A program made the translations under genes and the position numbers. Positions 2,938 through 61,929 of a stretch of 64,000 bases of DNA are shown piece by piece. Where the stretch lies: positions 329,462 through 393,461 of the forward strand of contig JALHPE010000001.1 of assembly GCA_022842645.1 (NCBI GenBank), written 5' to 3'. Origin of the DNA: Minisyncoccota bacterium (GTDB lineage: Bacteria; Patescibacteriota; Minisyncoccia; Phycocordibacterales; UBA2100). The notes under the pieces are model-generated. The model did no database searches, was not told the origin of the DNA, and was given only the letters and a program-made list of their open reading frames with translations. Each line of letters opens with the position of its first letter. Within the stretch, counting starts at the first letter, position 1.

Positions 2938-3444
2938 GTGATGCAATTCCAAGTACCTCAGTTCATCGAGGTCGAGGATAAAATCTTCGGACCCCTTACC
3001 TTCAAGCAATTCGTCTACGTTGCTGGAGGACTCGGCATTGCCTATATTCTCTGGCGTGCGCTCCCCACATTCCTAGCGGCACCACTTGGCCTTGCCTTCG
3101 CCGGGCTTGGGGTAGCGCTCGCTTTTGTGCAGTACAACGGGCAACCATTTATTGTTGCCGTAGAGCACGCTTTCTTCTATCTTCTGCGCGGGAAACTCTA
3201 CCTCTGGAACAATGAACAGGCAGTAGCACGTGCTAAAAAAACAACACAAGAAGTCAAACTTCCTGCAGAAGCTCCTTATATTCCACGACTTTCTGATAGT
3301 AAGCTCCACGAGCTTTCCTGGAGCCTCGACATCAATGAACGCATTGCTTCGGGTACCACAAGCGGGGAAGAAAGAGTCGCACGAAGTCCAATTGATGACC
3401 TCGTGGCCCCCGTACGCACGCCGCGCAATGCTATTCCTCGATAA
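2938..3444 (+). CDS. PrgI/VirB3-like small membrane protein of the T4SS
   Basis: The N-terminus EVEDKIFGPLTFKQFVYVAGGLGIAYILW followed by a second hydrophobic helix (LGLAFAGLGVALAFV) matches the PrgI-family pattern (K-I-x-G-x-L-T-x-R/K-Q plus two TM helices). The gene sits immediately upstream of VirB4, as PrgI does relative to PrgJ in Gram-positive conjugation systems. Confidence 0.5.
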   Translation: MMQFQVPQFIEVEDKIFGPLTFKQFVYVAGGLGIAYILWRALPTFLAAPLGLAFAGLGVALAFVQYNGQPFIVAVEHAFFYLLRGKLYLWNNEQAVARAKKTTQEVKLPAEAPYIPRLSDSKLHELSWSLDINERIASGTTSGEERVARSPIDDLVAPVRTPRNAIPR

Positions 3445-3447
3445 TCT

Positions 3448-4110
3448 ATGCCCGAAGCATCCACCATTCGTTCGCAAAACCGCTCCACCCAAGAGTTTGT
3501 TCCTATTTCCGAGGTGCGCGACGGTGTAATTGTGCTCAAGGATGGAAGCCTGCGCGCAATCCTTCTCGCCTCGTCTATCAACTTTGCCCTTAAGTCAGAG
3601 GATGAACAAACGGCGTTCATCGTGCAATTCCAAAACTTCCTGAATTCACTTGATTTCTCGACTCAGATTTTCATTGAATCCCGCATGCTTGATATTCGTC
3701 CCTATATTGCGACGCTTGAGGTGGCCTACAAAAGCCAAATGGACGATCTTATGCGCATACAGATTCGTGAATACATCGAATTCATCAAGAGTTTCACCGA
3801 AGCGGCAAACATCATGACGAAAAATTTCTTTGTGGTGGTTCCCTATAACCCCTCATCCCTACCTGCTCTCACCGGAAGTGGTGCAAGTAAATTGTTTGGG
3901 AAAAAGGGAACGGCTTCTGTGGCGGAGGCAAATCGCACTTTTGAAGAAAAAGTATCTCAGCTTGAACAACGTATTGCAATCGTCCAACAAGGCCTCGTGC
4001 GTTGTGGTGTGCGCACCGTGCAGCTCGGTACCGAGGAGGCGATTGAGCTCTTCTACAAACTCTTTAACCCTGGCGAGGAAGGGAAGCCGATGTCACTCAA
4101 CAATGAATAG
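3448..4110 (+). CDS. VirB4 N-terminal-domain-like protein (separate ORF; possible split VirB4)
   Basis: 220-aa ORF starting 3 nt after the PrgI-like gene and ending 56 nt before the VirB4 ATPase ORF, in a different frame. Its size plus the 660-aa ATPase ORF approximates a full-length VirB4/TrbE (~800-880 aa). No ATPase motifs of its own. Confidence 0.4.
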   Translation: MPEASTIRSQNRSTQEFVPISEVRDGVIVLKDGSLRAILLASSINFALKSEDEQTAFIVQFQNFLNSLDFSTQIFIESRMLDIRPYIATLEVAYKSQMDDLMRIQIREYIEFIKSFTEAANIMTKNFFVVVPYNPSSLPALTGSGASKLFGKKGTASVAEANRTFEEKVSQLEQRIAIVQQGLVRCGVRTVQLGTEEAIELFYKLFNPGEEGKPMSLNNE

Positions 4111-4166
4111 GAGTCAAGCTGCGAGCTTATAGGAAAAGCATAGTAGAATAAAGCTTACGGCGTTGG

Positions 4167-6149
4167 TTGTTACCATGTTGCCGCCTGACGCTTGAACCTA
4201 TGGGTATATTCGATCTTTTTTCAAAAAAAGGGGCGGAGCCGGCAGCGGTCTTGCCAGTCTTGCCAGAAGAGATCTATCGCACAGGGGTGCTTGGGCTTCA
4301 AGACGTGATTGCGCCGCACGCGCTTAAGATCAACTCACGCGAACTTGACCTCGGCGAGAAAATTGCACGCACCTTTTTTGTTATTTCGTATCCGCGCTTT
4401 CTCACGACGGGTTGGTTTGCTCCTATCATCAACCTCGACAAGGTTATTGATGTTTCGATTTTCGTCCACCCGATGGACACCAACGAAATGCTGCGTAAAT
4501 TCCAAAAGAAAGTAGCTGAGGTGCAATCTCAAATTTCAACACGAGAAGAAAAAGGTATGGTGCGCGACCCGGTTCTCGACACTGCGTATCAAGACCTTGA
4601 AAAACTCCGCGACTCTCTCCAGCAAGCACAAGAACGCATCTTCGAAGTGGGTCTCTACCTCACCATCTATGGCAATTCACGAGAGGAAATAGATAAAACA
4701 GAGAGCGAAATTCGCTCCATTCTCGAATCCCGCCTCGTTTACATTCGCCCAGCGCTTTTCCAGCAGGAACAAGGTTTTCGTTCGGTTATTCCACTTGCAA
4801 CGGATGAACTTGGTGTCCACACCAAACTCAATTCCGCACCACTCTCATCCATTTTCCCGTTCATTTCCTTCGACCTTACATCCGACCGCGGCATCCTTTA
4901 CGGCATCAATCGTCATAACTCCTCACTTATCCTCTTCGATCGTTTCTCGCTCGAAAACTACAATTCGGTCACGTTCGCAAAATCTGGTTCTGGTAAAAGC
5001 TACACAACGAAGCTCGAAATCCTGCGCTCGCTAATGTTCGATACGGAGGTTATCGTCATCGACCCCGAGCGTGAGTACGAATACCTTGCAGAAACCGTGG
5101 GTGGGCGGTACTTCAATATTTCTCTCTCATCTGAACACCACATCAATCCTTTTGACCTCCCAATTCCACGCGAAGACGAGTCGCCAGGCGATGTCTTGCG
5201 CAACAACATCATCACGCTCGTCGGCCTCTTCCGCATCATGCTCGGAGGACTTACTCCAGAGGAAGATGCGGTGATCGACAAAGCAATCACCGAAACCTAC
5301 GCTCTCAAGGACATCACGGCGGATGCAAATTTTGCCTCTATTGAGCCACCACTCCTTTCCGACTTCGAACTAGTGCTCTCCGGCATGGAGGGCTCGGAGT
5401 CTCTCGTCGCGCGCCTCTCGAAATACACCAAAGGCACGTGGTCGGGCTTCATGAACCGCCCGACAAACGTCGACATGAATAAAAAGCTTATTGTCTTTTC
5501 CGTCCGCGACATGGAAGACGATTTGAAGCCTGTCGCGATGTATATCATTACCCACCACATTTGGAATGCCGTACGCAAGGAACTTCGCAAGCGCCTCCTC
5601 GTCATCGACGAGGCATGGTGGATGATGAAATCTGAAGACACGGCATCCTTCCTCTTTGGAATAGCAAAACGTGGCCGTAAATACTACCTTGGACTCTCGA
5701 CGATTACCCAAGACGTAAACGACTTTCTCACCTCTCCCTATGGCGCAGCAATGATTACTAACTCGTCTATCCAACTCCTCCTGCGTCAATCACCTACATC
5801 CGTCGATCTCGTGCAAAGCACCTTTAAACTTTCTGACGAAGAAAAGTATCTCTTGCTCGAATCTGATGTGGGGGAGGGTATCTTCTTTGCAGGACTTAAA
5901 CATGTCGCGATTAAAGTCATTGCATCGTATACAGAAGACCAGATTATTACATCTGATCCATCACAAATTCTTGCGATAAAGAAAGCAAAACAGGAACTCG
6001 TTGCTTCACAGGAAGTGCCGAGCACTCCGGTGAGTCAAGAGGCGCGTGGTGCAGCGGCTGATATTCTGAAAAATGCAGAACTCAAGAGCGCAAGCGGAAC
6101 ACCGCAAGAGGCTCCAAGCGAACCCCCACTTCCGCCGGGTATAGTATGA
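4167..6149 (+). CDS. virB4: VirB4/TrbE/CagE-family type IV secretion ATPase (ATPase domain)
   Basis: Walker A FAKSGSGKSYTT, Walker B LLVIDEAWWMM, and the conserved downstream GRKYYLGLSTITQ typical of VirB4/TraC ATPases. The probable true start is MGIFDLFSKKG at 4200. Confidence 0.8.
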   Translation: MLPCCRLTLEPMGIFDLFSKKGAEPAAVLPVLPEEIYRTGVLGLQDVIAPHALKINSRELDLGEKIARTFFVISYPRFLTTGWFAPIINLDKVIDVSIFVHPMDTNEMLRKFQKKVAEVQSQISTREEKGMVRDPVLDTAYQDLEKLRDSLQQAQERIFEVGLYLTIYGNSREEIDKTESEIRSILESRLVYIRPALFQQEQGFRSVIPLATDELGVHTKLNSAPLSSIFPFISFDLTSDRGILYGINRHNSSLILFDRFSLENYNSVTFAKSGSGKSYTTKLEILRSLMFDTEVIVIDPEREYEYLAETVGGRYFNISLSSEHHINPFDLPIPREDESPGDVLRNNIITLVGLFRIMLGGLTPEEDAVIDKAITETYALKDITADANFASIEPPLLSDFELVLSGMEGSESLVARLSKYTKGTWSGFMNRPTNVDMNKKLIVFSVRDMEDDLKPVAMYIITHHIWNAVRKELRKRLLVIDEAWWMMKSEDTASFLFGIAKRGRKYYLGLSTITQDVNDFLTSPYGAAMITNSSIQLLLRQSPTSVDLVQSTFKLSDEEKYLLLESDVGEGIFFAGLKHVAIKVIASYTEDQIITSDPSQILAIKKAKQELVASQEVPSTPVSQEARGAAADILKNAELKSASGTPQEAPSEPPLPPGIV

Positions 6150-10687: not shown

Positions 10688-12031
10688 ATGATAACTAACA
10701 GGGAATTATGGCAGAATGCGCTCGTCCAGATAGAGCTCGGCACTTCTGAGGCGAGTTTTCGAACTTGGTTCCGTAATACCGACGTTGTCTCGCGTGATGG
10801 CAGCACTATTCATCTTGCCGTTCCTTCAAAAATTGTGAAGGAATGGCTTATGGAGAAGCACCATAAACTCATCCTTGGCACCCTTCGTTCGCTCGATAAT
10901 ACGATTAGGGTAGTTGAGTATGTGGTGAACCGATCGGTGGGAGAACCTCGCCGTGTTGAAAAAACACCCCCAGCAAACACCTCTCTCGACCTTGGACAGC
11001 TCTATATTGATAAACGAGACAACTTGAACCCCCGTTACACTTTTGAAACATTTGTAGTTGGTCCCTTTAATCAACTGGCTCACGCTGCGGCAAAGGCGGT
11101 TATAGAACGCCCCGGACTCGCGTACAACCCCTTCTTCGTCTATGGCGCAAGCGGGCATGGTAAAACCCACCTGATTCAAGCAATTGGTAACCATTTTAAG
11201 AAGACACATACCAATAAAAAGGTTTTTTATGTTTCCTCTGAGCGTTTTGCAGTTGATTTCATCAACGCGGTTTCACGAGGTCGCGCAAATGATTTTAAAG
11301 ATCAGTACCGACAGTACGACGTCCTTATTATGGATGATATTCAATTCATGGCTGAAAAGGAGCGTACACAAGAAGAACTGTTCCATCTTTTTAATGCAAT
11401 GCACGATAACAACAAGCAAATAATTTTCTCTTCGGATAAACATCCCATGCTTCTTCCGGGATTTGAGGATCGTGTCCGAGGCCGTCTCTCTGCAGGAGTC
11501 ATTATGGAAATTCCGGAGCCTGATGTTGAATCACGCATTGCAATTATAAAAGCAAAGATAGAACAACTTGGCTTTAGTCTTCCCGAGGACATCATCACTC
11601 ATATTGCCGAAACTGTGCGAGGCAACATTCGCGAACTTGAGGGAATCATTAATATGATTGTGTGCAAATCCCAACTGAAAGGGAAGGCGATTACTCTCCC
11701 GGACGTACGCACCCTCATAAAACATAATGTTCGTCCTTCAAAAGGTGTCTCTGTAGAAGAGGTGGTGCGCCGTATTGCGCAATATTATGAAGTTGCAGAG
11801 AAGAGTATTTACGAAAAAACCCGAAAGAAGGAGGTGGTGAAGCCACGTCAAATAATTATGTATATCTTACGAGAGGAATTTAATGTTTCGTACCCATCAA
11901 TTGGAGAAAAGCTTGGTGGAAGAGACCACACTACCGTGATTCACTCATGCGAAAAAATAAAAGATGAGGTTAAGCGCAGCACCTCCCTCGATCAAGAGCT
12001 TGAACATATTCGCACTTTAGTACACGCATAA
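10688..12031 (+). CDS. dnaA: chromosomal replication initiator protein DnaA
   Basis: AAA+ Walker A GASGHGKTHL, sensor motifs, and a C-terminal DnaA-box-binding domain (…VSYPSIGEKLGGRDHTTVIHSCEKI…). Confidence 0.95.
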   Translation: MITNRELWQNALVQIELGTSEASFRTWFRNTDVVSRDGSTIHLAVPSKIVKEWLMEKHHKLILGTLRSLDNTIRVVEYVVNRSVGEPRRVEKTPPANTSLDLGQLYIDKRDNLNPRYTFETFVVGPFNQLAHAAAKAVIERPGLAYNPFFVYGASGHGKTHLIQAIGNHFKKTHTNKKVFYVSSERFAVDFINAVSRGRANDFKDQYRQYDVLIMDDIQFMAEKERTQEELFHLFNAMHDNNKQIIFSSDKHPMLLPGFEDRVRGRLSAGVIMEIPEPDVESRIAIIKAKIEQLGFSLPEDIITHIAETVRGNIRELEGIINMIVCKSQLKGKAITLPDVRTLIKHNVRPSKGVSVEEVVRRIAQYYEVAEKSIYEKTRKKEVVKPRQIIMYILREEFNVSYPSIGEKLGGRDHTTVIHSCEKIKDEVKRSTSLDQELEHIRTLVHA

Positions 12032-12255
12032 CTATGTGGATAGTATTCGAACAACAAGAGATTTTGTGTGGAAAAAAAATATATATTACCTACCCAAATT
12101 TTATCCCCACACACCAACACGAGTTATTGATGTACTTTTCCCCAAACACACATACCCAAAATAGTAGTTAAAGACTCACTAAAAAAGACTTTTCCACCTA
12201 TACACATTACTAATAGTAATAATAAGTATTAATAAATAAATAATTATAAACACCT
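12032..12255. promoter_or_regulatory. candidate oriC (dnaA-dnaN intergenic): DnaA boxes plus AT-rich unwinding element
   Basis: DnaA-box-like 9-mers (TATCCACAT on minus at ~12034-12044, TTATCCCCACA, CTATACACA) followed by a >40-nt almost pure A/T stretch (ATTACTAATAGTAATAATAAGTATTAATAAATAAATAATTATAAA) just upstream of dnaN. Confidence 0.5.
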
Positions 12256-13353
12256 ATGCAATTCATCACCACACACGAATCTTTTCTTAAAGCGGTGCTT
12301 ATTGCAGAACGTGTTGTAGGAAAAAAAGAATCACTCCCCGTCCTTTCATGTGTAGTGCTTGATGTGGGTGGTAATGAGTGTGTGGTTAAAAGTACCAACC
12401 TTGAGGCTGGTGTTGAGATTCGGGTACATGCAGATGTAAAAGAGAAGGGTGTTATTGCTATTCCTGTTTCTGTGCTTTCTCAAACAATCAGATCATCTTC
12501 GGGAGATAAAATAGTTCTCCGTGCGGATCAAGGGAATCTACGAGTTGAATCAAAAGGTTTAAAAACGATTATAAAAGCTGTGCCGCATGAGGAATTTCCC
12601 ACTATCCCTCGCGATGTTTCGGAAAACAATATTTCTATCCCTCGCGAAAGTCTTCTTTCTTTATTTCATTCAGTTTCGTACGCAGCATCATCTTCGATGA
12701 TTCGTCCGGAACTGGGGAGTGTATATCTTTCTATTAACGATGGTGTGGTCACTGCTGTTGCAACGGATTCGTTTAGACTCGCGGAAAAAACTCACCCATT
12801 CAAGGGTGATGTATCTGGGGATGTGCTCATTCCACTTAAACATGTCCATGAAATAACACACATCCTCGAGCGCGTGTCAGATGCGGACATAACACTTTCC
12901 ACTAGTGATGCACAACTCTCTCTTTCAACGAGTATGGTGGCATTTGTTTCCCGTGTTATTGATGGAACATTTCCTAACTATAAAGAAATTTTACCCAAGA
13001 AATTTTCAACAGAAGCCACGCTTCTCAAAGCCGATTTTGCTGAGTCTCTCAGGAAAGCTCGTATTTTTTCTGGCGCGGATCAACATGTGGGATTCCATGT
13101 GTATCCAAAGAAAAAAATATTTGACGTTACAGCACAAAGTGCGGCGATTGGGGAGATGTCGGATTCACTTGAGGCAGCGGTTACCGGCGAGGATGTTGAT
13201 GTTAACTTTCATATAGGCTATGTAGCGGATGCGCTGCAATCTATTCCCTCAGATTCACTTATTCTCGGTTTTTCGGGGGCAGGGAAGCCGCTGGTTATGC
13301 GTGGGGTTGGGGATTCTACATTCACCTACCTTGCAATGCCCCTTAATCGCTAG
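12256..13353 (+). CDS. dnaN: DNA polymerase III beta sliding clamp
   Basis: 365 aa, three-domain beta-clamp pattern. Immediately downstream of dnaA. Confidence 0.9.
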   Translation: MQFITTHESFLKAVLIAERVVGKKESLPVLSCVVLDVGGNECVVKSTNLEAGVEIRVHADVKEKGVIAIPVSVLSQTIRSSSGDKIVLRADQGNLRVESKGLKTIIKAVPHEEFPTIPRDVSENNISIPRESLLSLFHSVSYAASSSMIRPELGSVYLSINDGVVTAVATDSFRLAEKTHPFKGDVSGDVLIPLKHVHEITHILERVSDADITLSTSDAQLSLSTSMVAFVSRVIDGTFPNYKEILPKKFSTEATLLKADFAESLRKARIFSGADQHVGFHVYPKKKIFDVTAQSAAIGEMSDSLEAAVTGEDVDVNFHIGYVADALQSIPSDSLILGFSGAGKPLVMRGVGDSTFTYLAMPLNR

Positions 13354-16279: not shown

Positions 16280-16295
16280 GGGTATATGGTATTTC

Positions 16296-16331
16296 GTATT
16301 TAGTATCTTGTATATACGAGATACTAAATAC
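16296..16331. promoter_or_regulatory. perfect 13-bp inverted repeat (GTATTTAGTATCT / AGATACTAAATAC) upstream of ruvC, candidate operator or terminator
   Basis: Seen directly in the AT-rich yebC-ruvC intergenic region. A GATACTA repeat continues downstream. Confidence 0.3.
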
Positions 16332-16356
16332 AGGATACTAGATACGTTTACATTAC

Positions 16357-17960: not shown

Positions 17961-18272
17961 ATTGACAACAGCACCTCAACATGCTACACTAGCATTTAGA
18001 AGTGGCGTTACCGCGCCATTTTTTGTTTGCCTATTTAGGCATACAAAACCTTAGTCAGGGGCGCAGATCTCCGAGCATACCAGGACTCATTCAAGGTTGA
18101 AACGGTGCCCGCTTTATGCGGATCCACTACTTCTTTCCTCAGATTCTGTCCGACTTTCGATATCCATTGAAAGCATGCTCGGAGATGTGCGACTCTCACG
18201 AGATTTCTTTTGAAACGATAGCATCGAACAGCGAATACACAATATTATTTTCGTGTCGTGGTGTACACGATA

Positions 18273-18303
18273 CAAAAAACACCGGCGCAAGTCGGTGTTT
18301 TTG
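18273..18303. terminator. bidirectional intrinsic terminator hairpin (A-run, ACACCG-loop-CGGTGT, T-run) downstream of pilB
   Basis: AAAAAACACCGGCGCAAGTCGGTGTTTTT seen in sequence. Confidence 0.5.
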
Positions 18304-18418
18304 AGAGTATTCCGGAAAATATGTTTTTCGGGTCGCTGTCTGGCACTGCTGTGCCAGCGCTCACTCTCGCGCCGACGCGCTGCGAGAGACCCTCAAAACA
18401 TATTTTCCGGAATACTCT
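18303..18418. repeat. 116-bp element bounded by perfect 25-bp terminal inverted repeats with internal nested hairpins, abutting the pilB stop codon
   Basis: Left arm GAGAGTATTCCGGAAAATATGTTTT (18303-18327) and right arm AAAACATATTTTCCGGAATACTCTC (18394-18418) are exact reverse complements. The interior contains CTGGCAC…GTGCCAG and TCTCGC…GCGAGA stems. Confidence 0.5.
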
Positions 18419-18421
18419 CGG

Positions 18422-20134
18422 TCACGATATTGTTTCAAGCATTACTTCGTCGTGAAGATCCACTACGCGTCCAAGCTCGTCGAGTGATGTGATACCTTGA
18501 AGCACTTTTACTGCGCCGTCTTGTGCCATGCGACGAATTTGCTGCGGTTTTGCTGCTCTCCAAATCTCGCGCTCGCTTGTTGTTGTGCGGATGACTGTTT
18601 CCACCGCCTTATCCATCAAAATCACTTCGACGATGCCCATCCGACCTTTGTAACCAATCCCACCGCACTTCGCACATCCTTTTGCCATCCACGTGGAGTC
18701 TCGTTTTTCCGGAACGCCCTCGGGGTGTGGAATGTGCGCGAGGAGTGTTTGCATTGTCTTTGCATCCTCGGGAGAGAGTGGTGTTTCTGTGCGGCAGTCG
18801 GGGCAGAGTTTGCGCACAAGGCGCTGTGCCATGGAAACAGTGAGTGCGGCGCCGAGAATGTCGGCGTTCACTCCCATGTCGATGAGGCGGGGAAAGGTGC
18901 CCGCGGCGTCATTGGTGTGCAGCGTGGAGAACACTAGGTGACCGGTCAGTGATGCGTTTACTGCAGTTGAGGCAACTTCACTGTCGCGGATCTCGCCCAC
19001 CATGATGATGTCAGGGTCTTGGCGCAGTGTTGAGCGCAGCCCCGAGGCAAAGGTGTAGTCTTTCGAGACCTGTGTTTGAACGACGCCTGGGAGGTGATAT
19101 TCAATAGGGTCTTCGATGGTAACCACTTTTATTTCCGGATTCGATACTTGTTTGAGAAAGGCATACAACGTCGTTGTTTTTCCGCTTCCGGTGGGACCTG
19201 TATTGAGGATCATGCCGTTGGGCTTCGCAATTTCCTTATTGAAAATCTCCATGAGGTAGGAATCAAAGCCAAGCTTTTCCATGGGGAGTGCAATGGTCGA
19301 GGGGTCGAGAATACGCATCACAATAGTTTCGGCGTAAGCCCCGGGAAGAATGGAGGCGCGAATCTCAATTTCTTTTTCATTCACCTGAATAGAGAAGCGT
19401 CCGTCTTGTGCGGCGTTTTTGATATTGAGTTTGAGTCCTGAGAGAAGCTTGAGGCGCGAAGAGATGAGGTTATAGGTGGGGGCATCAAAGACAAGTACCT
19501 CGAGGAGAACGCCGTCAAGGCGGTAGCGCATGCGAACCCCTGTTTCTTCTGGTTCTAAGTGAACGTCTGAAGCGCCGAGTGCGAGCGCACCTGCCATGAT
19601 GACCTCCAGGACGCGCGAGATACGATGGCTGTCTTTGCTACCCGCGAGATTCTGAATTTCCACTTTTACATCCTCCAGTGTTTTAATCTCGGCGAGCATG
19701 CGTTGAATTGTCTCGTTTGAGAGCGTCAGAATCCCAGCCTCTGTTTCTGTGGCGAATGAGATGTCGTGATAGCGATCCCATGCGTGGTCAAGCGATGCGC
19801 GAGAGACGATAAAGCGACGCACTTCAAAACCGAGGCGTTCGACGTTTGCGATGGCGCGCATGGTGTCGTCGCGTTCCGGCGCGCGCGCTGCGATCCAAAT
19901 CTTCTTGTTGAGCTTATGGAACGCCGCCACCTCTGCTTCACGCGCTTCTTTTTCAGGGATCAGACGCAAAGCATCGGTATCAATCGACTTCTTAGTGAGA
20001 TCGACATATTCAACGCCGTATTTCCCGGCGAGCATTTCTGCAAGCTGCTCTTCTTCGCGGCGGCGTAATTCTTCCAAGCGCTCTTCTTGTTTATGCTCAT
20101 TGAATTGGGCGGACATACGTATATAGTAGCGCAC
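18422..20134 (-). CDS. pilB: type II/IV secretion system ATPase (PilB/GspE family; type IV pilus assembly ATPase)
   Basis: Walker A GPTGSGKTTTLYA, Asp box, His box, and the tetracysteine motif CPDC…CAKCGG typical of PilB/GspE. An alternative start is MSAQFNEHK at 20116. Confidence 0.85.
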   Translation of the reverse strand: MRYYIRMSAQFNEHKQEERLEELRRREEEQLAEMLAGKYGVEYVDLTKKSIDTDALRLIPEKEAREAEVAAFHKLNKKIWIAARAPERDDTMRAIANVERLGFEVRRFIVSRASLDHAWDRYHDISFATETEAGILTLSNETIQRMLAEIKTLEDVKVEIQNLAGSKDSHRISRVLEVIMAGALALGASDVHLEPEETGVRMRYRLDGVLLEVLVFDAPTYNLISSRLKLLSGLKLNIKNAAQDGRFSIQVNEKEIEIRASILPGAYAETIVMRILDPSTIALPMEKLGFDSYLMEIFNKEIAKPNGMILNTGPTGSGKTTTLYAFLKQVSNPEIKVVTIEDPIEYHLPGVVQTQVSKDYTFASGLRSTLRQDPDIIMVGEIRDSEVASTAVNASLTGHLVFSTLHTNDAAGTFPRLIDMGVNADILGAALTVSMAQRLVRKLCPDCRTETPLSPEDAKTMQTLLAHIPHPEGVPEKRDSTWMAKGCAKCGGIGYKGRMGIVEVILMDKAVETVIRTTTSEREIWRAAKPQQIRRMAQDGAVKVLQGITSLDELGRVVDLHDEVMLETIS

Positions 20135-24976: not shown

Positions 24977-25123
24977 AATGAAAGAAAAATAGGGTCTGCA
25001 CGCTATTTTTCGTTACATTTCCGAGACGGAGGCATGTTTCGCGAGTACGCGAAACAGCCGAGTCGGGGTCGAAGAATTCTTGTCGCGACGGCGACAAGAA
25101 TATCTGTGACGACTGAAGACTGT
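24977..25123 (+). other. conserved tRNA 3'-trailer element (family member 1 of 4)
   Basis: Contains GACGGAGGC, GCCGAGTCGGGGTCG and AATATCTGTGAC motifs shared with the trailers at 29241-29405, 37908-38075 and 39382-39500, plus internal hairpins (TTTCGCG-AGTA-CGCGAAA; TTCTTGTCGC-GACG-GCGACAAGAA). Confidence 0.5.
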
Positions 25124-29168: not shown

Positions 29169-29240
29169 GCTCTCGTCGTTCAACGGATAGGACACATCCT
29201 TGCGGAGGATGTAATGTAGGTTCGATTCCTGCCGAGAGCA
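29169..29240 (+). tRNA. tRNA-Arg (anticodon GCG)
   Basis: Acceptor GCTCTCG/CGAGAGC, D-arm GTTC-AACGGATA-GGAC, anticodon stem CATCC/GGATG with loop TTGCGGA, T-arm GTAGG-TTCGATT-CCTGC, discriminator A. Confidence 0.75.
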
Positions 29241-29405
29241 ATTGAAGCGGAGCAAAATTGCTCCGGAGGACAGTGCCTTCGCACTGTCCGTCAGGAATCG
29301 AAAGGCGGAGCGTTACCGAGCCACTAGGCGAGGTCGCGAGCCGGGGTCGCGAAATTTCTGAGTGACGACGAAGAAATATTTGTGACCGATTCCTGCCGAG
29401 AGCAC
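29241..29405 (+). other. conserved tRNA 3'-trailer element (family member 2 of 4), ending in a direct copy of the tRNA-Arg 3' end
   Basis: Hairpins GGAGCAAAATTGCTCC and GGACAGTGCCTTCGCACTGTCC. CAGGAATCGAA is antisense to the tRNA T-loop TTCGATTCCTG. Motifs GGCGGAGCG, GAGCCGGGGTCGCG and ATATTTGTGAC. The terminal GACCGATTCCTGCCGAGAGCA duplicates tRNA positions 29221-29240. Confidence 0.5.
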
Positions 29406-31585: not shown

Positions 31586-32179
31586 CTAAAAACCAAAGAT
31601 CTCAAGTATCTTATGTGCAAGTGGTTCCTGCATCGGCACTTCTTCCACGCGTTCGCGTAAGTAGGCGCGCACTTCGTCGGGATTAGTGTCGCCGAGCGGA
31701 ATGACAAGATTGGGCGCCATGAATGCGATGGTGTCGATGAGGAGGGTGGGTTCACCAACTTCGGTTTCAACCCAGAACGAAATAATATTCTCAAAGGGGT
31801 GAAGTGTGGGGCCGGTGCGAATGCCGCGCTCGGATATTTCAAATTCGTGAAGCTCCGGTGGGTGTTGCGCGATGAGGGCAATAGTCACTGCGGCGATGAT
31901 AATGACGAGTGCAAAGAGCACGTTGGAAAAAAGAATGCTTGTGAGTGCGGCGCAGACGGCAATAATGCCGAGCGCCCAAAACCAATCCGAGCCGCGCTCG
32001 ATGTGCTCGTGTTCAAATGCAGACCAACGCAAAGAAACCTGTGAGGCTTCAGAAAAAGGCGACCTGCGTTGTTGCGGAGCCTCTGCGTCATCTTCATCGT
32101 ATGCCCGATACGCCTCAGACGACGCTTTCTCCGCGCCTAGCATCTCATCCTTTTTCTGAAGCCTCACACCATCCGACAT
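31586..32179 (-). CDS. hypothetical membrane protein (acidic N-terminus, two TM helices)
   Basis: TM helices WFWALGIIAVCAALTSILFSNVLFALVIIIAAVTIALIA. No known motif. Confidence 0.4.
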   Translation of the reverse strand: MSDGVRLQKKDEMLGAEKASSEAYRAYDEDDAEAPQQRRSPFSEASQVSLRWSAFEHEHIERGSDWFWALGIIAVCAALTSILFSNVLFALVIIIAAVTIALIAQHPPELHEFEISERGIRTGPTLHPFENIISFWVETEVGEPTLLIDTIAFMAPNLVIPLGDTNPDEVRAYLRERVEEVPMQEPLAHKILEIFGF

Positions 32180-37834: not shown

Positions 37835-37907
37835 GGGCGATTAGCTCAGTTGGTAGAGCAATCCGTTTACACCGGAAAGGTCACAGGTTCGAGTCCTGTA
37901 TCGCCCA
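37835..37907 (+). tRNA. tRNA-Val (anticodon TAC)
   Basis: Acceptor GGGCGAT/ATCGCCC, D-arm GCTC-AGTTGGTA-GAGC, anticodon loop TTTACAC, T-arm ACAGG-TTCGAGT-CCTGT, discriminator A. 22 nt after tRNA-Arg(TCT). Confidence 0.85.
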
Positions 37908-38075
37908 CAAAATCAATGAGCGCAATCCGCAGGATTGCGCGACTATGATTTTGTAGGAGCGATACAGGACTCGAAAGACGGAGGCGGGGAACCCGTCAGA
38001 AGACGGGTCGCCGAGTCGGGGTCGTGAAATTGTGCGAGCGACTGGTGAGCAAAATATCTGTGACCGAGCCCACTG
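37908..38075 (+). other. conserved tRNA 3'-trailer element (family member 3 of 4)
   Basis: Hairpin GCGCAATCC-GCA-GGATTGCGC. GCGATACAGGACTCGAA is exactly antisense to the tRNA-Val 3' T-arm/acceptor TTCGAGTCCTGTATCGC. Motifs GACGGAGGCGGGG, hairpin ACCCGTC-AGAAG-ACGGGT, GCCGAGTCGGGGTCG and AATATCTGTGACCGAGCCCAC. Confidence 0.5.
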
Positions 38076-39297: not shown

Positions 39298-39381
39298 GCG
39301 CAGGTGGCGAAATTGGTAGACGTACTACCTTGAGGTGGTAGCGCCCGCAAGGGCATGGAGGTTCGAGTCCTCTCCTGCGCA
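39298..39381 (+). tRNA. tRNA-Leu (anticodon GAG), long variable arm
   Basis: Acceptor GCGCAGG/CCTGCGC, anticodon stem CTACC/GGTAG with loop TTGAGGT, variable arm CGCCCGCAAGGGCAT, T-arm GGAGG-TTCGAGT-CCTCT, discriminator A. Confidence 0.85.
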
Positions 39382-39500
39382 CAAAAATTCAAAACCGAGG
39401 CATGCCTCGGTTTTGTTTATTTTTGCAGCGGGAGAGGACTCAGACTGCGAGCCGGGGTTGCACACACGTTTATCCGACGGGATCAAAATTATGTGTGACC
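39382..39500 (+). other. conserved tRNA 3'-trailer element (family member 4 of 4)
   Basis: Terminator-like hairpin CCGAGGCATGCCTCGG plus a T-run. GGAGAGGACTC is antisense to the tRNA-Leu T-arm GAGTCCTCTCC. Motifs GCGAGCCGGGGTTGC and AAATTATGTGTGACC. Confidence 0.45.
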
Positions 39501-40702: not shown

Positions 40703-41191
40703 ATGGTGTACGTAGTATGTGGTCATTGTGGAGTAGATTTTCGTGCGAAGCCATCTCATATTGCCCTGGGGTACGCGAAATTTTGCTCGAGAAAGTGCAG
40801 TTTTGAGAACATGCGAAACGGGGAATGGGTTGAGTGTGATGGATGTGGAACGAAAGTATATCGGAGCTTAAAGTCCATTAACGCATCTAAAAGTCATAAG
40901 TATTTTTGTAGCAAGTCATGTCAGACAAAGTGGAGAAATAACGATTTCAGTGGTAAGCGGCATGCAAATTGGCAACACGGACGCGGCTCATATAGGAATA
41001 TTATGAAAAGAGCCGGTGTAGAAGCTGTGTGTGATTTATGTCGCATAACTGATGAGAGGGTGCTGATTGTTCATCACAAAGATCAGGATAGGAAAAATAA
41101 TAGTATTAAAAATCTCGCGTGGCTTTGTCGGAATTGTCACTATCTTGCGCATCAATACGCGATTGGACGGGACCGGGGTCTGATTGTATAG
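40703..41191 (+). CDS. HNH endonuclease with N-terminal Cys4 zinc-ribbon motifs
   Basis: CGHCG…C…C and CDGCG…C…C pairs, then the HNH core LIVHHKDQDRKNNSIKNLAWLCRNCH (H-H…N…N…C…C-H). Confidence 0.7.
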   Translation: MVYVVCGHCGVDFRAKPSHIALGYAKFCSRKCSFENMRNGEWVECDGCGTKVYRSLKSINASKSHKYFCSKSCQTKWRNNDFSGKRHANWQHGRGSYRNIMKRAGVEAVCDLCRITDERVLIVHHKDQDRKNNSIKNLAWLCRNCHYLAHQYAIGRDRGLIV

Positions 41192-49256: not shown

Positions 49257-52200
49257 GTGAGCGACTTTGCTACGATACGCATCATGGCTGAAAATCAGGG
49301 GAAATCGGATGCCGCTCAGCGGGAAGAGGAGATACTCGAATTCTGGCGGGAGAATAAGACGTTTGAGCGCTCGCTTGAAAAGCACGCCCCAAAGGGCGAG
49401 TTTGTGTTTTATGACGGCCCGCCGTTTGCGACAGGGCTTCCGCACCACGGCTCGCTTCTTTCTTCGATCATCAAAGACGTGATTCCGCGCTACAAGACGA
49501 TGCGCGGCTACAGAGTGCGCCGCCGGTGGGGATGGGATACGCACGGACTTCCTATTGAGAACCTTGTTGAGAAGGAGTTGGGGCTCAAGACCAAGAAAGA
49601 GATTCTCGATATTGGTATCGCGAAGTTCAACGAAACTGCACGCGGCATGGTTTTGAAATACGTGCACGATTGGAAACACTACATCGAGCGCGTCGGACGT
49701 TGGGTGGACTACGAGAATTCCTACAAGACGATGGACAACTCCTACATCGAGAGCGTGTGGTGGGCGCTGAAGCGCATTCATGAGAAAGGACTTCTTTATG
49801 AAGGGCGGAAAGTGCTCATGTACTGCACACACTGCGAAACGCCTCTCGCAAAAGCAGAAATCGCGGCGGACAATACGTATAAAGATGTTACTGAAGAGGC
49901 GGTAACGGTGAAGTTTGAGATTGTAGATCAGCCGAAGACCTACTTTCTCGCGTGGACAACAACGCCGTGGACGTTACCGGGGAACGTTGCGCTCGCCGTT
50001 GGAGCGGAGATCGACTATGTGAAAGCGAGTGTCGGGGATATCACGTATATCCTTGCTAAAGAGCGCGTGAGCACCGTCTTGAAGGATGTTACGCACGTCA
50101 TCGTCGGCACTATGCGGGGGAGTGACCTTGTCGGGAAACGCTACGCGCCGGTTGTTTCAGTTTCTGCACTTACCTCTGAAAGCTCGCATCGCGTGCAGAC
50201 GGCGGATTTTGTTACAACAGAAGATGGCACCGGCATCGTGCACATTGCGCCGATGTATGGCGAGGACGACTACCAACTCGGCGTGCGCGAGAAGCTCCCC
50301 ATGGTGCAGCTCCTTAATCCGAACGGAACATATAACGATGCCGCGCCCGAGCTTATCCGCGGCAAATACCTAAAAGAGGGAGCAAAAGACATTAAGCGCG
50401 ATTTGGAATCGCGCGGACTTCTCTTTGCGCGCGAGAACCATACACACTCATATCCGCATTGCTGGCGTTGTGGCACTCCACTTATCTACAACGCCGTTTC
50501 TTCGTGGTTCATCAATATTCAGGACGTAAAGCAGAAGATCATTTCCGAAAACCAGAAGATTAACTGGGTGCCGGAGCACTTGAAAAATGGGCGTTTTGGA
50601 AAGATTCTCGAGAGCGCCCCCGATTGGACGATCTCACGTAACCGTTTCTGGGCGTCCCCGCTTCCATTCTGGAAGTCTAAAGAGGGGAAGGTGATGGTGG
50701 TTGGCTCACTTGCGGAACTGAAAGAAAAGATGAAAAAGAGCGGGAACACCTATTTCACGATGCGACATGGTGAGGCCGAGACAAATGTGCAAGGGATTTT
50801 GAATTGTGACCCCGATGCACCATATGCGCTGACTCAACTTGGGCGCACAGGCGTGCTCGAAGCGGCGCGTGCATTCAAGGATGCTGGGCATCATGTCGAC
50901 CTTGTGGTGGCATCGCCCTTTGTGCGGACGAAAGAATCTGTCGCGATCTTCGCAGAGGTACTTGGACTCTCAGAAGAGCAGATTCGATACGAGCCCCGGC
51001 TGGGGGAATATAACTTTGGGGTACTCAATGGGGCTTCTGTCTTGGCGTGGCATGAAAAGTTTGCACCGAGCGTCGATAGATTTAATCAGGGTCCTCAGGG
51101 AGGAGAAAATGATGCACAAGTGCGGGCGCGAATGCTCGCGGTTGTGCAAGAGCTAGAACGCACCGAAAAAGGAAAAACTATTTTAATCGTATCGCATGGC
51201 ACACCGCTCTGGCTTCTTCAGGCAACGGTTAATGGGCTTTCGCGGGAAGACATTGCACAACGCTTTGTGCGCGAATATCCAAATAATGCAGCCGTACAAC
51301 CGTTGAGATACGTTCCACTTCCCTTAAACCATGATAACGAGTTGGATCTCCATCGGCCCTACATTGATGACATCGTGCTTCTTGATGAAGACGGCACCGA
51401 ATATCACCGCATTCCGGAGGTTGTTGACTGTTGGGTGGAGAGCGGCTCTATGCCGTTTGCGGAGTATCACTATCCGTTTGAAAATAAGGACGAATTTGAA
51501 AAGCGCGCGCCCGGCGACTTTATCGCCGAATATATCGCACAGACGCGCACGTGGTTTTACTACATGCATGCGCTCGGAGTCGTGCTCTTCGACAGAATCG
51601 CGTTTAAGAATGTGGTGACGACAGGCACCATCGTTGCCGCAGATGGCGAGAAAATTTCGAAATCGAAGAAAAATTATACTGACCCGCTTGAACTCATTGA
51701 GCGCTACGGCGCAGATGCGGTGCGCCTCTATCTCATGGGCTCTCCCGTGATGCAGGCTGAGGATTTGCGTTTCCGCGACGACGACGTGCGCGAGGCGCAT
51801 AACCGCACGATTGGGATTCTCTGGAACAGTTTCAAATTCTTCGATCTCTATCAGAAAGACTTCGACGGAAGTGCCGTGGCACGTAAGAGTGCGCACGTCT
51901 TGGATCGTTGGATTCTCGCGCTTCTTGATCAGACGACGACCGAAATCAGTGAGGCGTTTGATGCCTACGACACCCCGCGCGCGTGCCGTGCGGTGCGCGC
52001 ATTTGTAGACGAATATTCAACGTGGTACGTGCGCAGAAGTCGTGAGCGCGTGAAGAGCGAGTGGCACGATCGGCAGTTTGCGCTCGCAACACAGCAAGAA
52101 GTGTTGCTCACATTCTCAAAGCTCATTGCGCCCGTGATGCCGTTTCTCGCTGAGGGTATCTATCGCGGCATTGCGGATGGAGGAAGCGTGCACCTGGAAA

Positions 52201-52709
52201 GCTGGCCCGAGGTGCAGAAGGGATTCTTCGCACGCCTCTTTGGGGCAAAGGACACCGTCCTTGAAGACATGAAAGAAGTGCGCGCAACCGTGACGAAAGC
52301 ACTTGAGGCGCGTGACAGAGCAGGAATGAAAGTGCGCCAGCCGCTCACCAAGCTTGAGATTGGTTCACATATCTCAAAAGAATTGCGCGAGATTATTCGC
52401 GATGAAGTGAATGTGAAGGAGGTTACCATTGCCTCAGATCTAAAAGCGGGTGAAGTGCGGCTCGACACCATGATTACACCAGAACTTGCGCGCGAAGGTT
52501 TGGTGCGCGAGATTATTCGCATGGGGCAGGATGAGCGCAAGAAAGCTGGGTGCGCTCCAGGAGACCATCTTGCACACGTACTCGTTGGGGGATCTGATGA
52601 GGTGCTGAGTGCTGTGCGCGAGCATGTGCTTGCAATTCAGGAGGCGCTCAAGACGGAGCGCGTTGAGGCCCAAGCGGGAGAGGTGCTCCATGTCGTAATC
52701 AGAAGGTAG
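49257..52709 (+). CDS. ileS: isoleucyl-tRNA synthetase (type 2-like) carrying an inserted histidine-phosphatase (PGAM-like) domain
   Basis: HIGH-region PPFATGLPHHGS. Editing domain TTPWTLPGNVALAV. IleRS-specific DWTISRNRFWASPLPFW. KMSKS as GEKISKSKKN. Between the W-x-x-S-R-x-R-x-W block and the …DCWVESGS block sits an extra domain of about 190 aa with RHG (FTMRHGEAETN) and SHG (ILIVSHGTPLW) histidine-phosphatase signatures. Confidence 0.9.
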   Translation: MSDFATIRIMAENQGKSDAAQREEEILEFWRENKTFERSLEKHAPKGEFVFYDGPPFATGLPHHGSLLSSIIKDVIPRYKTMRGYRVRRRWGWDTHGLPIENLVEKELGLKTKKEILDIGIAKFNETARGMVLKYVHDWKHYIERVGRWVDYENSYKTMDNSYIESVWWALKRIHEKGLLYEGRKVLMYCTHCETPLAKAEIAADNTYKDVTEEAVTVKFEIVDQPKTYFLAWTTTPWTLPGNVALAVGAEIDYVKASVGDITYILAKERVSTVLKDVTHVIVGTMRGSDLVGKRYAPVVSVSALTSESSHRVQTADFVTTEDGTGIVHIAPMYGEDDYQLGVREKLPMVQLLNPNGTYNDAAPELIRGKYLKEGAKDIKRDLESRGLLFARENHTHSYPHCWRCGTPLIYNAVSSWFINIQDVKQKIISENQKINWVPEHLKNGRFGKILESAPDWTISRNRFWASPLPFWKSKEGKVMVVGSLAELKEKMKKSGNTYFTMRHGEAETNVQGILNCDPDAPYALTQLGRTGVLEAARAFKDAGHHVDLVVASPFVRTKESVAIFAEVLGLSEEQIRYEPRLGEYNFGVLNGASVLAWHEKFAPSVDRFNQGPQGGENDAQVRARMLAVVQELERTEKGKTILIVSHGTPLWLLQATVNGLSREDIAQRFVREYPNNAAVQPLRYVPLPLNHDNELDLHRPYIDDIVLLDEDGTEYHRIPEVVDCWVESGSMPFAEYHYPFENKDEFEKRAPGDFIAEYIAQTRTWFYYMHALGVVLFDRIAFKNVVTTGTIVAADGEKISKSKKNYTDPLELIERYGADAVRLYLMGSPVMQAEDLRFRDDDVREAHNRTIGILWNSFKFFDLYQKDFDGSAVARKSAHVLDRWILALLDQTTTEISEAFDAYDTPRACRAVRAFVDEYSTWYVRRSRERVKSEWHDRQFALATQQEVLLTFSKLIAPVMPFLAEGIYRGIADGGSVHLESWPEVQKGFFARLFGAKDTVLEDMKEVRATVTKALEARDRAGMKVRQPLTKLEIGSHISKELREIIRDEVNVKEVTIASDLKAGEVRLDTMITPELAREGLVREIIRMGQDERKKAGCAPGDHLAHVLVGGSDEVLSAVREHVLAIQEALKTERVEAQAGEVLHVVIRR

Positions 52710-61830: not shown

Positions 61831-61912
61831 TCTGTAGTGTGTAGACTGTAGTTTGTAGTCAAAATTCCGGCGAAGAGCCGGTATTTTGCATTACTACAGA
61901 CTACAAACTATT
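61829..61912. terminator. bidirectional terminator: GC hairpin CCGGC-GAAGA-GCCGG plus T-run nested in a larger TGTAGT-repeat inverted repeat, between convergent rpsR and efp
   Basis: TAGTCTGTAGTGTGTAGACTGTAGTTTGTAGTC … ACTACAGACTACAAACTA flank the GC hairpin. Confidence 0.55.
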
Positions 61913-61929
61913 TTCTACAAACTTCCCAC

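Follow-up and report, generated by a model that had tools for sequence, protein, structure and literature searches.

A large inverted repeat at the 3' end of pilB in a Patescibacteria genome, possibly shaped by template switching

The pilB locus and its surroundings

The DNA analysed here, referred to below as the window, is a stretch of 64,000 nt from a bacterium whose PilB homologues place it in Patescibacteria, near Paceibacteria/Kaiserbacteria. PBP1, ruvC, yebC, ruvB and pilB lie in this order on the minus strand and are followed by the plus-strand genes tsaE and polA. The product of the pilB-like gene contains T2SSE and MshEN domains and therefore belongs to the PilB/GspE family of ATPases. 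Its stop codon (TGA, 18424-18422) is separated by 2 nt from a long inverted repeat, which does not alter the C-terminus of the protein (...TIS). The far side of the repeat abuts an intrinsic terminator composed of an A5 tract, 10-bp arms that include A-T pairs, an 8-nt loop and T5-6. This terminator is orthologous to those of all close relatives, and the canonical bidirectional terminator that a first-pass annotation had placed here is confirmed. A simple terminator scanner made no call at this position, because the A and T tracts pair together. The window also includes dnaA (10688-12031), dnaN and the minimum of the cumulative GC skew, which locates the pilB element about 7 kb from the replication origin.

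Several other features were observed in this DNA (Table 1). Between the pilB terminator and ruvB lies a structured RNA of about 150-250 nt, conserved in all relatives (L006, L008, L009, L010, L015, L016, L018, L019), with compensatory changes such as CCGAGC/GCTCGG vs CCAAGC/GCTTGG and no Rfam match. Its region holds a near-consensus promoter on the plus strand, a candidate extended -10 element on the minus strand (TGn-TATCGT) and a variable hairpin slot. A conjugation/T4SS-like cluster (PrgI-like, VirB4/TraG-like ATPase) adjoins yidC, dnaA and dnaN. Further away, an isoleucyl-tRNA-synthetase-like protein carries an inserted histidine-phosphatase domain, and the segment directly upstream of tRNA-His holds a small ORF with a motif of HNH endonucleases.

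Table 1. Coordinates of the pilB element, its neighbours and other features of the window
Feature	Position	Strand	Remarks
PilB/GspE-family ATPase gene	18422..20116	-	564 aa from ATG at 20116; ORF open to GTG at 20134
pilB-proximal arm, 25 nt, perfect	18395..18419	-	starts 2 nt past pilB stop codon
67-nt core	18328..18394	.	three-way junction closed by GGGTC/GACCC (18330-18334/18388-18392)
Core hairpin 2, CTCTCGC...GCGAGAG	18364..18388	.	variable tip; stems 18364-18370/18382-18388
Core hairpin 1, CTGGCAC-TGCT-GTGCCAG	18340..18357	.	stems 18340-18346/18351-18357
pilB-distal arm, 25 nt, perfect	18303..18327	-	outer 13 nt + inner 12 nt
Bidirectional intrinsic terminator	18275..18302	.	AAAAACACCG-GCGCAAGT-CGGTGTTTTT; abuts element
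Structured RNA	18030-18270		variable hairpin slot near 18066-18090
Promoter, TTGACA-17-TACACT	17962-17990	+	near-consensus
yebC-ruvC palindrome, 64-65 nt	16282-16345		AT-rich
Conjugation/T4SS-like cluster and yidC, dnaA, dnaN	2938-6149, 10688-13353
Three-hairpin block, 127 nt	24977-25103		directly after tRNA-Lys
tRNA 3'-end palindromes	37888-37975 (Val), 29221-29302 (Arg-gcg), 39365-39441 (Leu)
Inverted arms, 20 nt, 89 nt apart	32040-32168		between tRNA-Ser and 5' end of ORF 31586-32179
Small ORF with HNH motif	40703-41191		upstream of tRNA-His
Isoleucyl-tRNA-synthetase-like protein	49257-52709		1150 aa; His_Phos_1 at residues 502-671
Long imperfect hairpin	61836-61923		directly past efp stop

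Architecture of the inverted repeat

The two arms of the repeat consist of GAGAGTATTCCGGAAAATATGTTTT, read on the plus strand at the pilB-distal end, and its exact reverse complement at the pilB-proximal end; no such match was expected from 100 dinucleotide shuffles. The perfect 25-bp inverted repeats seen at first pass are therefore real, with small corrections to their frame: the element measures 117 bp (18303-18419) around a core of 67 nt, rather than 116 bp around 66 nt, and begins just past the stop codon as proposed, at a distance of 2 nt instead of 3. At 91% complementarity, the inverted repeat can be followed over 35 nt. The element as a whole folds into a three-way junction on the 25-bp stem. 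Both core stems described initially (CTGGCAC/GTGCCAG and TCTCGC…GCGAGA) were recovered, whereas GCGCCGACGCGC, then taken for a palindrome, is not a perfect one: it forms a GCGC/GCGC stem with a CGAC loop.

The predicted folding energy is -73.8 kcal/mol in the pilB sense vs -71.0 kcal/mol on the other strand (z about -11), and -44.4 kcal/mol when the element is folded as DNA. The feature expected of an intrinsic terminator, a U tract directly after a G+C-rich stem, is absent from the big hairpin, which runs into AAAAAC when read in the pilB sense and into GGTCAC when read on the opposite strand; the adjacent hairpin of the terminator has one. An assembly artefact is ruled out, since the identical sequence occurs in two independent Logan assemblies (L004, L005).

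Distribution and divergence in related lineages

The pilB-ruvB spacer was retrieved from nine further lineages, among which only L006/L007/L022 (PilB 94% identical in amino acids, pilB 80% in nucleotides) has a homologue of the element at the same site. In L015 (PilB 94%) and L008 (93%), the stop codon is followed by a spacer of 14-15 nt and a plain terminator; a plain terminator is also found in L010-14, L018 and L019-21 (PilB 86-87%), while L009 (88%) has neither the element nor a recognisable terminator past the stop. In L016/17, an extra gene takes the place of the element. This ORF (292-295 aa, 4199-5086 in L016/L017, between pilB and terminator) contains no Pfam domain, and the pilB-to-terminator slot thus varies by species, being empty or occupied by a hairpin or an extra ORF. 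The first-pass annotation had named, as evidence against its reading, a single copy in the genome together with a normal hairpin terminator in relatives; the plain terminators of close relatives agree in part with this and speak against a MITE.

By nucleotide identity of pilB, the window is an outgroup to L006, L008, L015 and L016 (80% vs 82-85%), so that the element is common to species that are not sisters. Vertical descent requires several losses in the L006 clade. Since sister species live without it, the element is dispensable.

Comparison of the two homologues reveals a change in orientation. The plus strand of the window aligns with the pilB sense of L006 (blastn, 90.1% identity over 91 nt), yet pilB lies on the minus strand of the window: the core is inverted relative to pilB. 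The orientation is fixed in each species across 2-3 independent assemblies, and both orientations are seen between species only. This inversion bears on the proposal that the element is a structured 3'-UTR RNA. The element does form part of the pilB transcription unit, ahead of its terminator, and its structure is kept in a second species; a sequence-specific RNA, on the other hand, is ruled out by a core that is inverted between the two species. The 3'-UTR reading is therefore supported in an orientation-independent sense only.

Over the inner 91 nt the two species share 90% identity, compared with 42% at the four-fold degenerate sites of five flanking genes (P about 7e-22), which implies that the element is either under constraint or of much more recent origin than the split between the species. 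The divergence of about 10% is located in the stems and the hairpin tip and spares the unpaired junction bases; the unpaired core positions are identical in 14 of 14 cases. All stem differences between the window and L006 are compensated, with 5-7 pairs changed on both sides (the range depends on the register chosen for the outer arm) and none broken. The closing pair of hairpin 1, for instance, is C-G in the window and G-C in L006. All 33 inner pairs are Watson-Crick in both species, and G-U pairs are confined to the degenerate outer arm of L006.

The arms themselves are heterogeneous. Their inner part, AAAATATGTT(T/C)T, is common to the window and L006, whereas identity drops to 46-69% over the outer 13 nt, which pair perfectly in the window and imperfectly in L006. 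As read from the alignment, the distal outer arms agree between species at 9/13 positions and the proximal ones at only 6/13. In the distal arm of the window, the inner 12 nt (AAAACATATTTT) are those conserved in the L006 homologue, and the outer 13 nt (CCGGAATACTCTC in the pilB sense) resemble the stop-to-terminator spacer of outgroup species. A 9-mer, CGGAATACT, is common to the distal outer arm and the outgroup spacer (TCGGAATACTTCTTC in L018; p about 0.003), a match that is short and was picked out post hoc. The 7-bp stem of hairpin 2 is also that of the outgroup pilB terminator (AAAACTCTCGC-TTGC-GCGAGAGTTTT; L010, L018, L019); across the window and the loci, CTCTCGC/GCGAGAG recurs in that terminator only, again a short, post hoc match. 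Together, the spacer 9-mer, the hairpin-2 stem and the likeness of the distal arm lead us to suggest, from sequence comparison, that the element may have arisen in place and that its proximal arm may have been overwritten by a reverse-complement copy of the distal one.

Some of these properties would also suit a site acting at the DNA level, whether a cruciform, paired sites bound by a protein dimer (the inner arms AAAATATGTTYT, separated by 67 bp, and the core, both of them conserved) or a small invertible switch. Folding is strand-symmetric with inner pairs that are all Watson-Crick, the unpaired bases are conserved despite the inversion, the core is inverted between species, and the element lies close to dnaA/dnaN and the skew minimum; such a site would work whatever its orientation relative to neighbouring genes. 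Such a site is nevertheless very unlikely in our view: a scan of 18303-18419 found no sigma-70-like promoter, no recombinase or invertase gene was recognized among the ORFs of at least 150 aa in the 64 kb, the orientation does not vary within species, a spacer of 67 bp would leave very little room for recombinase synapsis, and the absence of the element from close relatives argues against an essential chromosomal site. Compared by eye, the element bears no resemblance to parS, dif or DnaA boxes. The protein-binding cruciform suggested at first pass would be compatible with the strand symmetry and the conserved unpaired bases.

Searches for further copies and mobility functions

The 25-bp terminal repeats had initially raised the possibility of a MITE-like element. 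A non-autonomous mobile palindrome of the MITE or REP type, strongly preferring the gap between the stop codon of pilB and its terminator, could have inserted independently and in opposite orientations in the window and L006 lineages. Besides the perfect 25-nt terminal repeats, the patchy presence of the element in non-sister species, an identity far above the neutral level and the opposite orientations agree with this scenario. At the boundary of the inner arm, the window alone has a palindromic CCGG/TTCCGGAA repeat that could be taken for a duplication, and small palindromic insertions are real in the L006 lineage.

The latter are two small perfect hairpins that have CCCGCACAC...GTGTGCGGG in common (L022 11830-11869 and 3224-3266; = L006 4830-4869). 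One of them (38-42 nt) interrupts the loop of the pilB terminator and is bordered by a TTGC duplication, and the other lies 8.6 kb away, after a Mur-ligase gene. They look like a REP-like repeat family of the L006 lineage, and they are absent from the window.

The searches, however, tell against mobility of the pilB element. By blastn-short, the 64-kb window and about 135 kb of related loci, among them a 21.7-kb stretch of L022, yielded no second copy. A covariance model derived from both homologues returned only the two known sites over the same window and loci. The conserved 18- and 19-mers of the core are absent from viral contigs, and blastn against phages and plasmids gave nothing meaningful. 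A concatenated six-frame translation of the element, meant to catch spurious ORFs annotated over other copies, had no match among 5.8 billion proteins. An exact search with a 21-mer of the arm, taken from the variable outer arm and not from the conserved core, returned only chance matches (a Saprospiraceae pyrH-like coding region and an unrelated AT-rich contig) from genome and metagenome collections that lack the source locus and are silent on copy number in the source genome. Neither transposase, integrase, invertase nor RAYT was recognized by Pfam among 50 ORFs of the window, these being the plausible non-overlapping genes of at least 150 aa.

The structure of the site argues in the same direction. 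No target-site duplication, a check proposed at first pass, surrounds the 117 bp (flanks CC/AAAAAC) or the L006 homologue (flanks A/AAAAAAC). The outermost 13 nt, which a transposase would be expected to target, are the least conserved part of the element. The empty sites of L008 and L015 hold a different spacer of 14-15 nt, so that their boundaries relative to the filled site are not those of a clean insertion, and two independent insertions at one site would need exceptional target specificity. The MITE reading is thus not supported, and a mobile palindrome of the MITE or REP type appears improbable.

No Rfam family, which the first-pass annotation had suggested looking for, was found at the gathering score in the whole window, and only chance-level matches appeared in 18000-18700 at E up to 10. 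Hammerhead and other small ribozymes, Y RNAs and retron msr/msd (there being no RT) were rejected by eye.

Other palindromes in the genome

Long palindromes are not limited to the pilB locus (Table 1). Downstream of tRNA-Val, tRNA-Arg(gcg) and tRNA-Leu, at a distance of about 50 nt, lies a reverse-complement copy of the T-arm/acceptor 3' end of the tRNA itself, and the resulting palindromes are centred on the downstream terminator hairpins. In these cases the direction of copying can be told: the tRNA sequence must be the original, and the distal arm is therefore the copy. The inverted copy of tRNA-Arg is absent from L022. A global alignment of the window (8.4-29.3 kb) with L022 showed that nearly all intergenic indels of at least 30 nt are strong hairpins, including two of 42 nt and 36 nt on the L022 side and, in the window, a 65-nt palindrome between yebC and ruvC and the block after tRNA-Lys, which contains three strong hairpins (-54 kcal/mol) and is absent from L022.

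The yebC-ruvC spacer, 77 nt long in the window vs 12 nt in L006 and L009, contains a palindrome with GTATC-like repeats of roughly 7 nt, possibly an array of protein-binding sites or a further hairpin insertion. The hairpin past efp, whose 25-nt arms are 84% complementary, is likewise rich in GTAG/GTAT repeats. The palindrome next to tRNA-Ser, with perfect arms (-68 kcal/mol), resembles the pilB element in architecture (a long closing stem and a branched core) and is unrelated to it in sequence. A process of arm copying and hairpin formation seems to be general in this genome.

Such a process could in principle be sufficient. The pilB element would then be a functionless by-product of template switching, a palindrome formed around old terminator hairpins, whose likeness between the two species reflects recent lateral exchange through natural transformation and homologous recombination. 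Its dispensability in sister species, the predominance of hairpin gain and loss among intergenic length changes, and the other lineage-specific long palindromes of the window are consistent with this. The 115 nt that follow the element are also slightly closer to L006 (90%) than to L015 (87%), although no excess identity to L006 was seen at the 3' end of pilB and the locus shows no clear recombination tract there; sequence evidence for such a tract is weak. A distribution of changes that spares the unpaired junction bases looks like constraint, and a hairpin of -74 kcal/mol located 2 nt past a stop codon is hardly expected to leave the mRNA unaffected. We therefore regard a wholly neutral by-product as unlikely.

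A template-switching model

The reading we favour, though only tentatively, combines the two aspects: the element would be a lineage-restricted quasi-palindrome that evolved in place within the 3' UTR of pilB and was shaped by template switching, and it would serve there as an RNA barrier irrespective of its orientation. Template switching between the arms of inverted repeats is known to homogenise and expand these arms and to invert their spacers, and a single event can create perfect stems as well as multi-base compensatory changes (PMC8604942, PMC13100816, PMC8794818, PMC5941160). The corresponding features are present here: a spacer inverted between relatives with the arms in place, homogenisation and extension of the arms, and double-sided changes. 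In this model, template switching during replication would both create and keep complementarity at the DNA level. The perfect 25-bp arms would result from recent homogenisation and extension, in which the distal arm, similar to the ancestral spacer, was copied over the proximal one, and the flipped core would result from inversion of the spacer. Template switching thus accounts for the perfect arms, for outer arms that are divergent yet complementary, for the inverted core and for the strand symmetry. The high identity between the window and L006 most likely stems from a recent exchange of the intergenic allele, from constraint or from both, an attribution that we make with low certainty.

The second part of the model concerns the transcript. 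The element would be transcribed as the end of the pilB mRNA, where a hairpin of about -74 kcal/mol located 2 nt past the stop codon could form a physical barrier in either orientation. This barrier might block 3'->5' exonucleases, present RNase III with 25 bp of double-stranded RNA to cleave, or impede ribosomes at the stop codon, and each option would result in a tuning of PilB output. We infer this function at the RNA level from the position of the element and by analogy with REP elements (PMC3479197, PMC2777011).

Template switching keeps the arms complementary and cannot explain why unpaired bases are conserved. This would be accounted for if the 91-nt inner unit (the 12-nt arms AAAATATGTTYT and the two-hairpin core) were an undescribed Patescibacteria element, constrained in sequence and independent of orientation, such as a site-specific mobile hairpin of the stop-terminator gap or a DNA-level site near the origin that is recognized by a protein or forms a cruciform: unpaired bases would then be conserved far above the neutral level while orientation and presence vary between species. 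We consider this new kind of element doubtful.

Comparison with known systems

The flip-flop loops of plastids and the quasi-palindromes of yeast and bacteria provide the closest parallels (PMC6342102, PMC8604942, PMC8794818, PMC13100816 and PMC5941160): there, as in the pilB element, inverted-repeat arms enclose a spacer that occurs in either orientation among related taxa. The plastid case, in which the loop of a hairpin flip-flops, is the classical one (PMC6342102). Repeats produced by template switching further resemble the element in that their arms match perfectly in one lineage but not in another, carry compensated multi-base changes and reach into the flanking sequence. Unlike the plastid examples, whose loops measure a few to tens of nucleotides, the pilB element has a 67-nt spacer, which in turn forms a junction of two hairpins and exceeds neutral sites by far in conservation.

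REP/BIME elements of enterobacteria and pseudomonads, like the pilB element, are stable stem-loops located just 3' of coding regions and inside transcripts, and REP stem-loops have been linked to mRNA turnover (PMC3479197, PMC2777011). REPs, however, are 20-40 nt long, occur in hundreds of copies with a common consensus and are associated with a RAYT transposase, whereas the pilB element is 117 nt long, single-copy in the window and loci examined, and without a RAYT in the window. Liang, Rudd and Deutscher (2015) reportedly found that REPs located within about 15 nt of a stop codon lower translation through ribosome stalling.

The Correia elements of Neisseria have a comparable size (about 100-150 bp), terminal inverted repeats of roughly 25 bp and long double-stranded RNA stems, and are often co-transcribed in UTRs. 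They differ from the pilB element by being highly repeated, with a TA target duplication and conserved termini; the latter has no second copy in the window and loci, no flanking duplication and divergent termini. In phage lambda, the sib retroregulator is an RNase III hairpin located 3' of int. What the pilB element may have in common with sib is that RNase III could cleave a long, perfectly paired stem located beyond a coding region and thereby control decay of the mRNA upstream; the analogy is functional only, and there is no sequence relationship.

Conclusions

The pilB element adds one more case to a known type of feature and is fairly ordinary save for its flipped core. That this core is strongly conserved and yet inverted is the remaining puzzle, and could point to something new. 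A word of caution also follows for annotation: perfect terminal inverted repeats and compensatory changes, taken alone, demonstrate neither a MITE nor a selected RNA.

If the favoured reading is true, the locus would be a clear bacterial case in which template switching has built, perfected and flipped a large RNA/DNA hairpin. The example would come from a reduced Patescibacteria genome whose intergenic changes seem to be dominated by the gain and loss of hairpins. The pilus-assembly ATPase is thought to be needed by these episymbionts for DNA uptake or attachment, and a hairpin at its stop codon could tune the dosage of PilB in some species.
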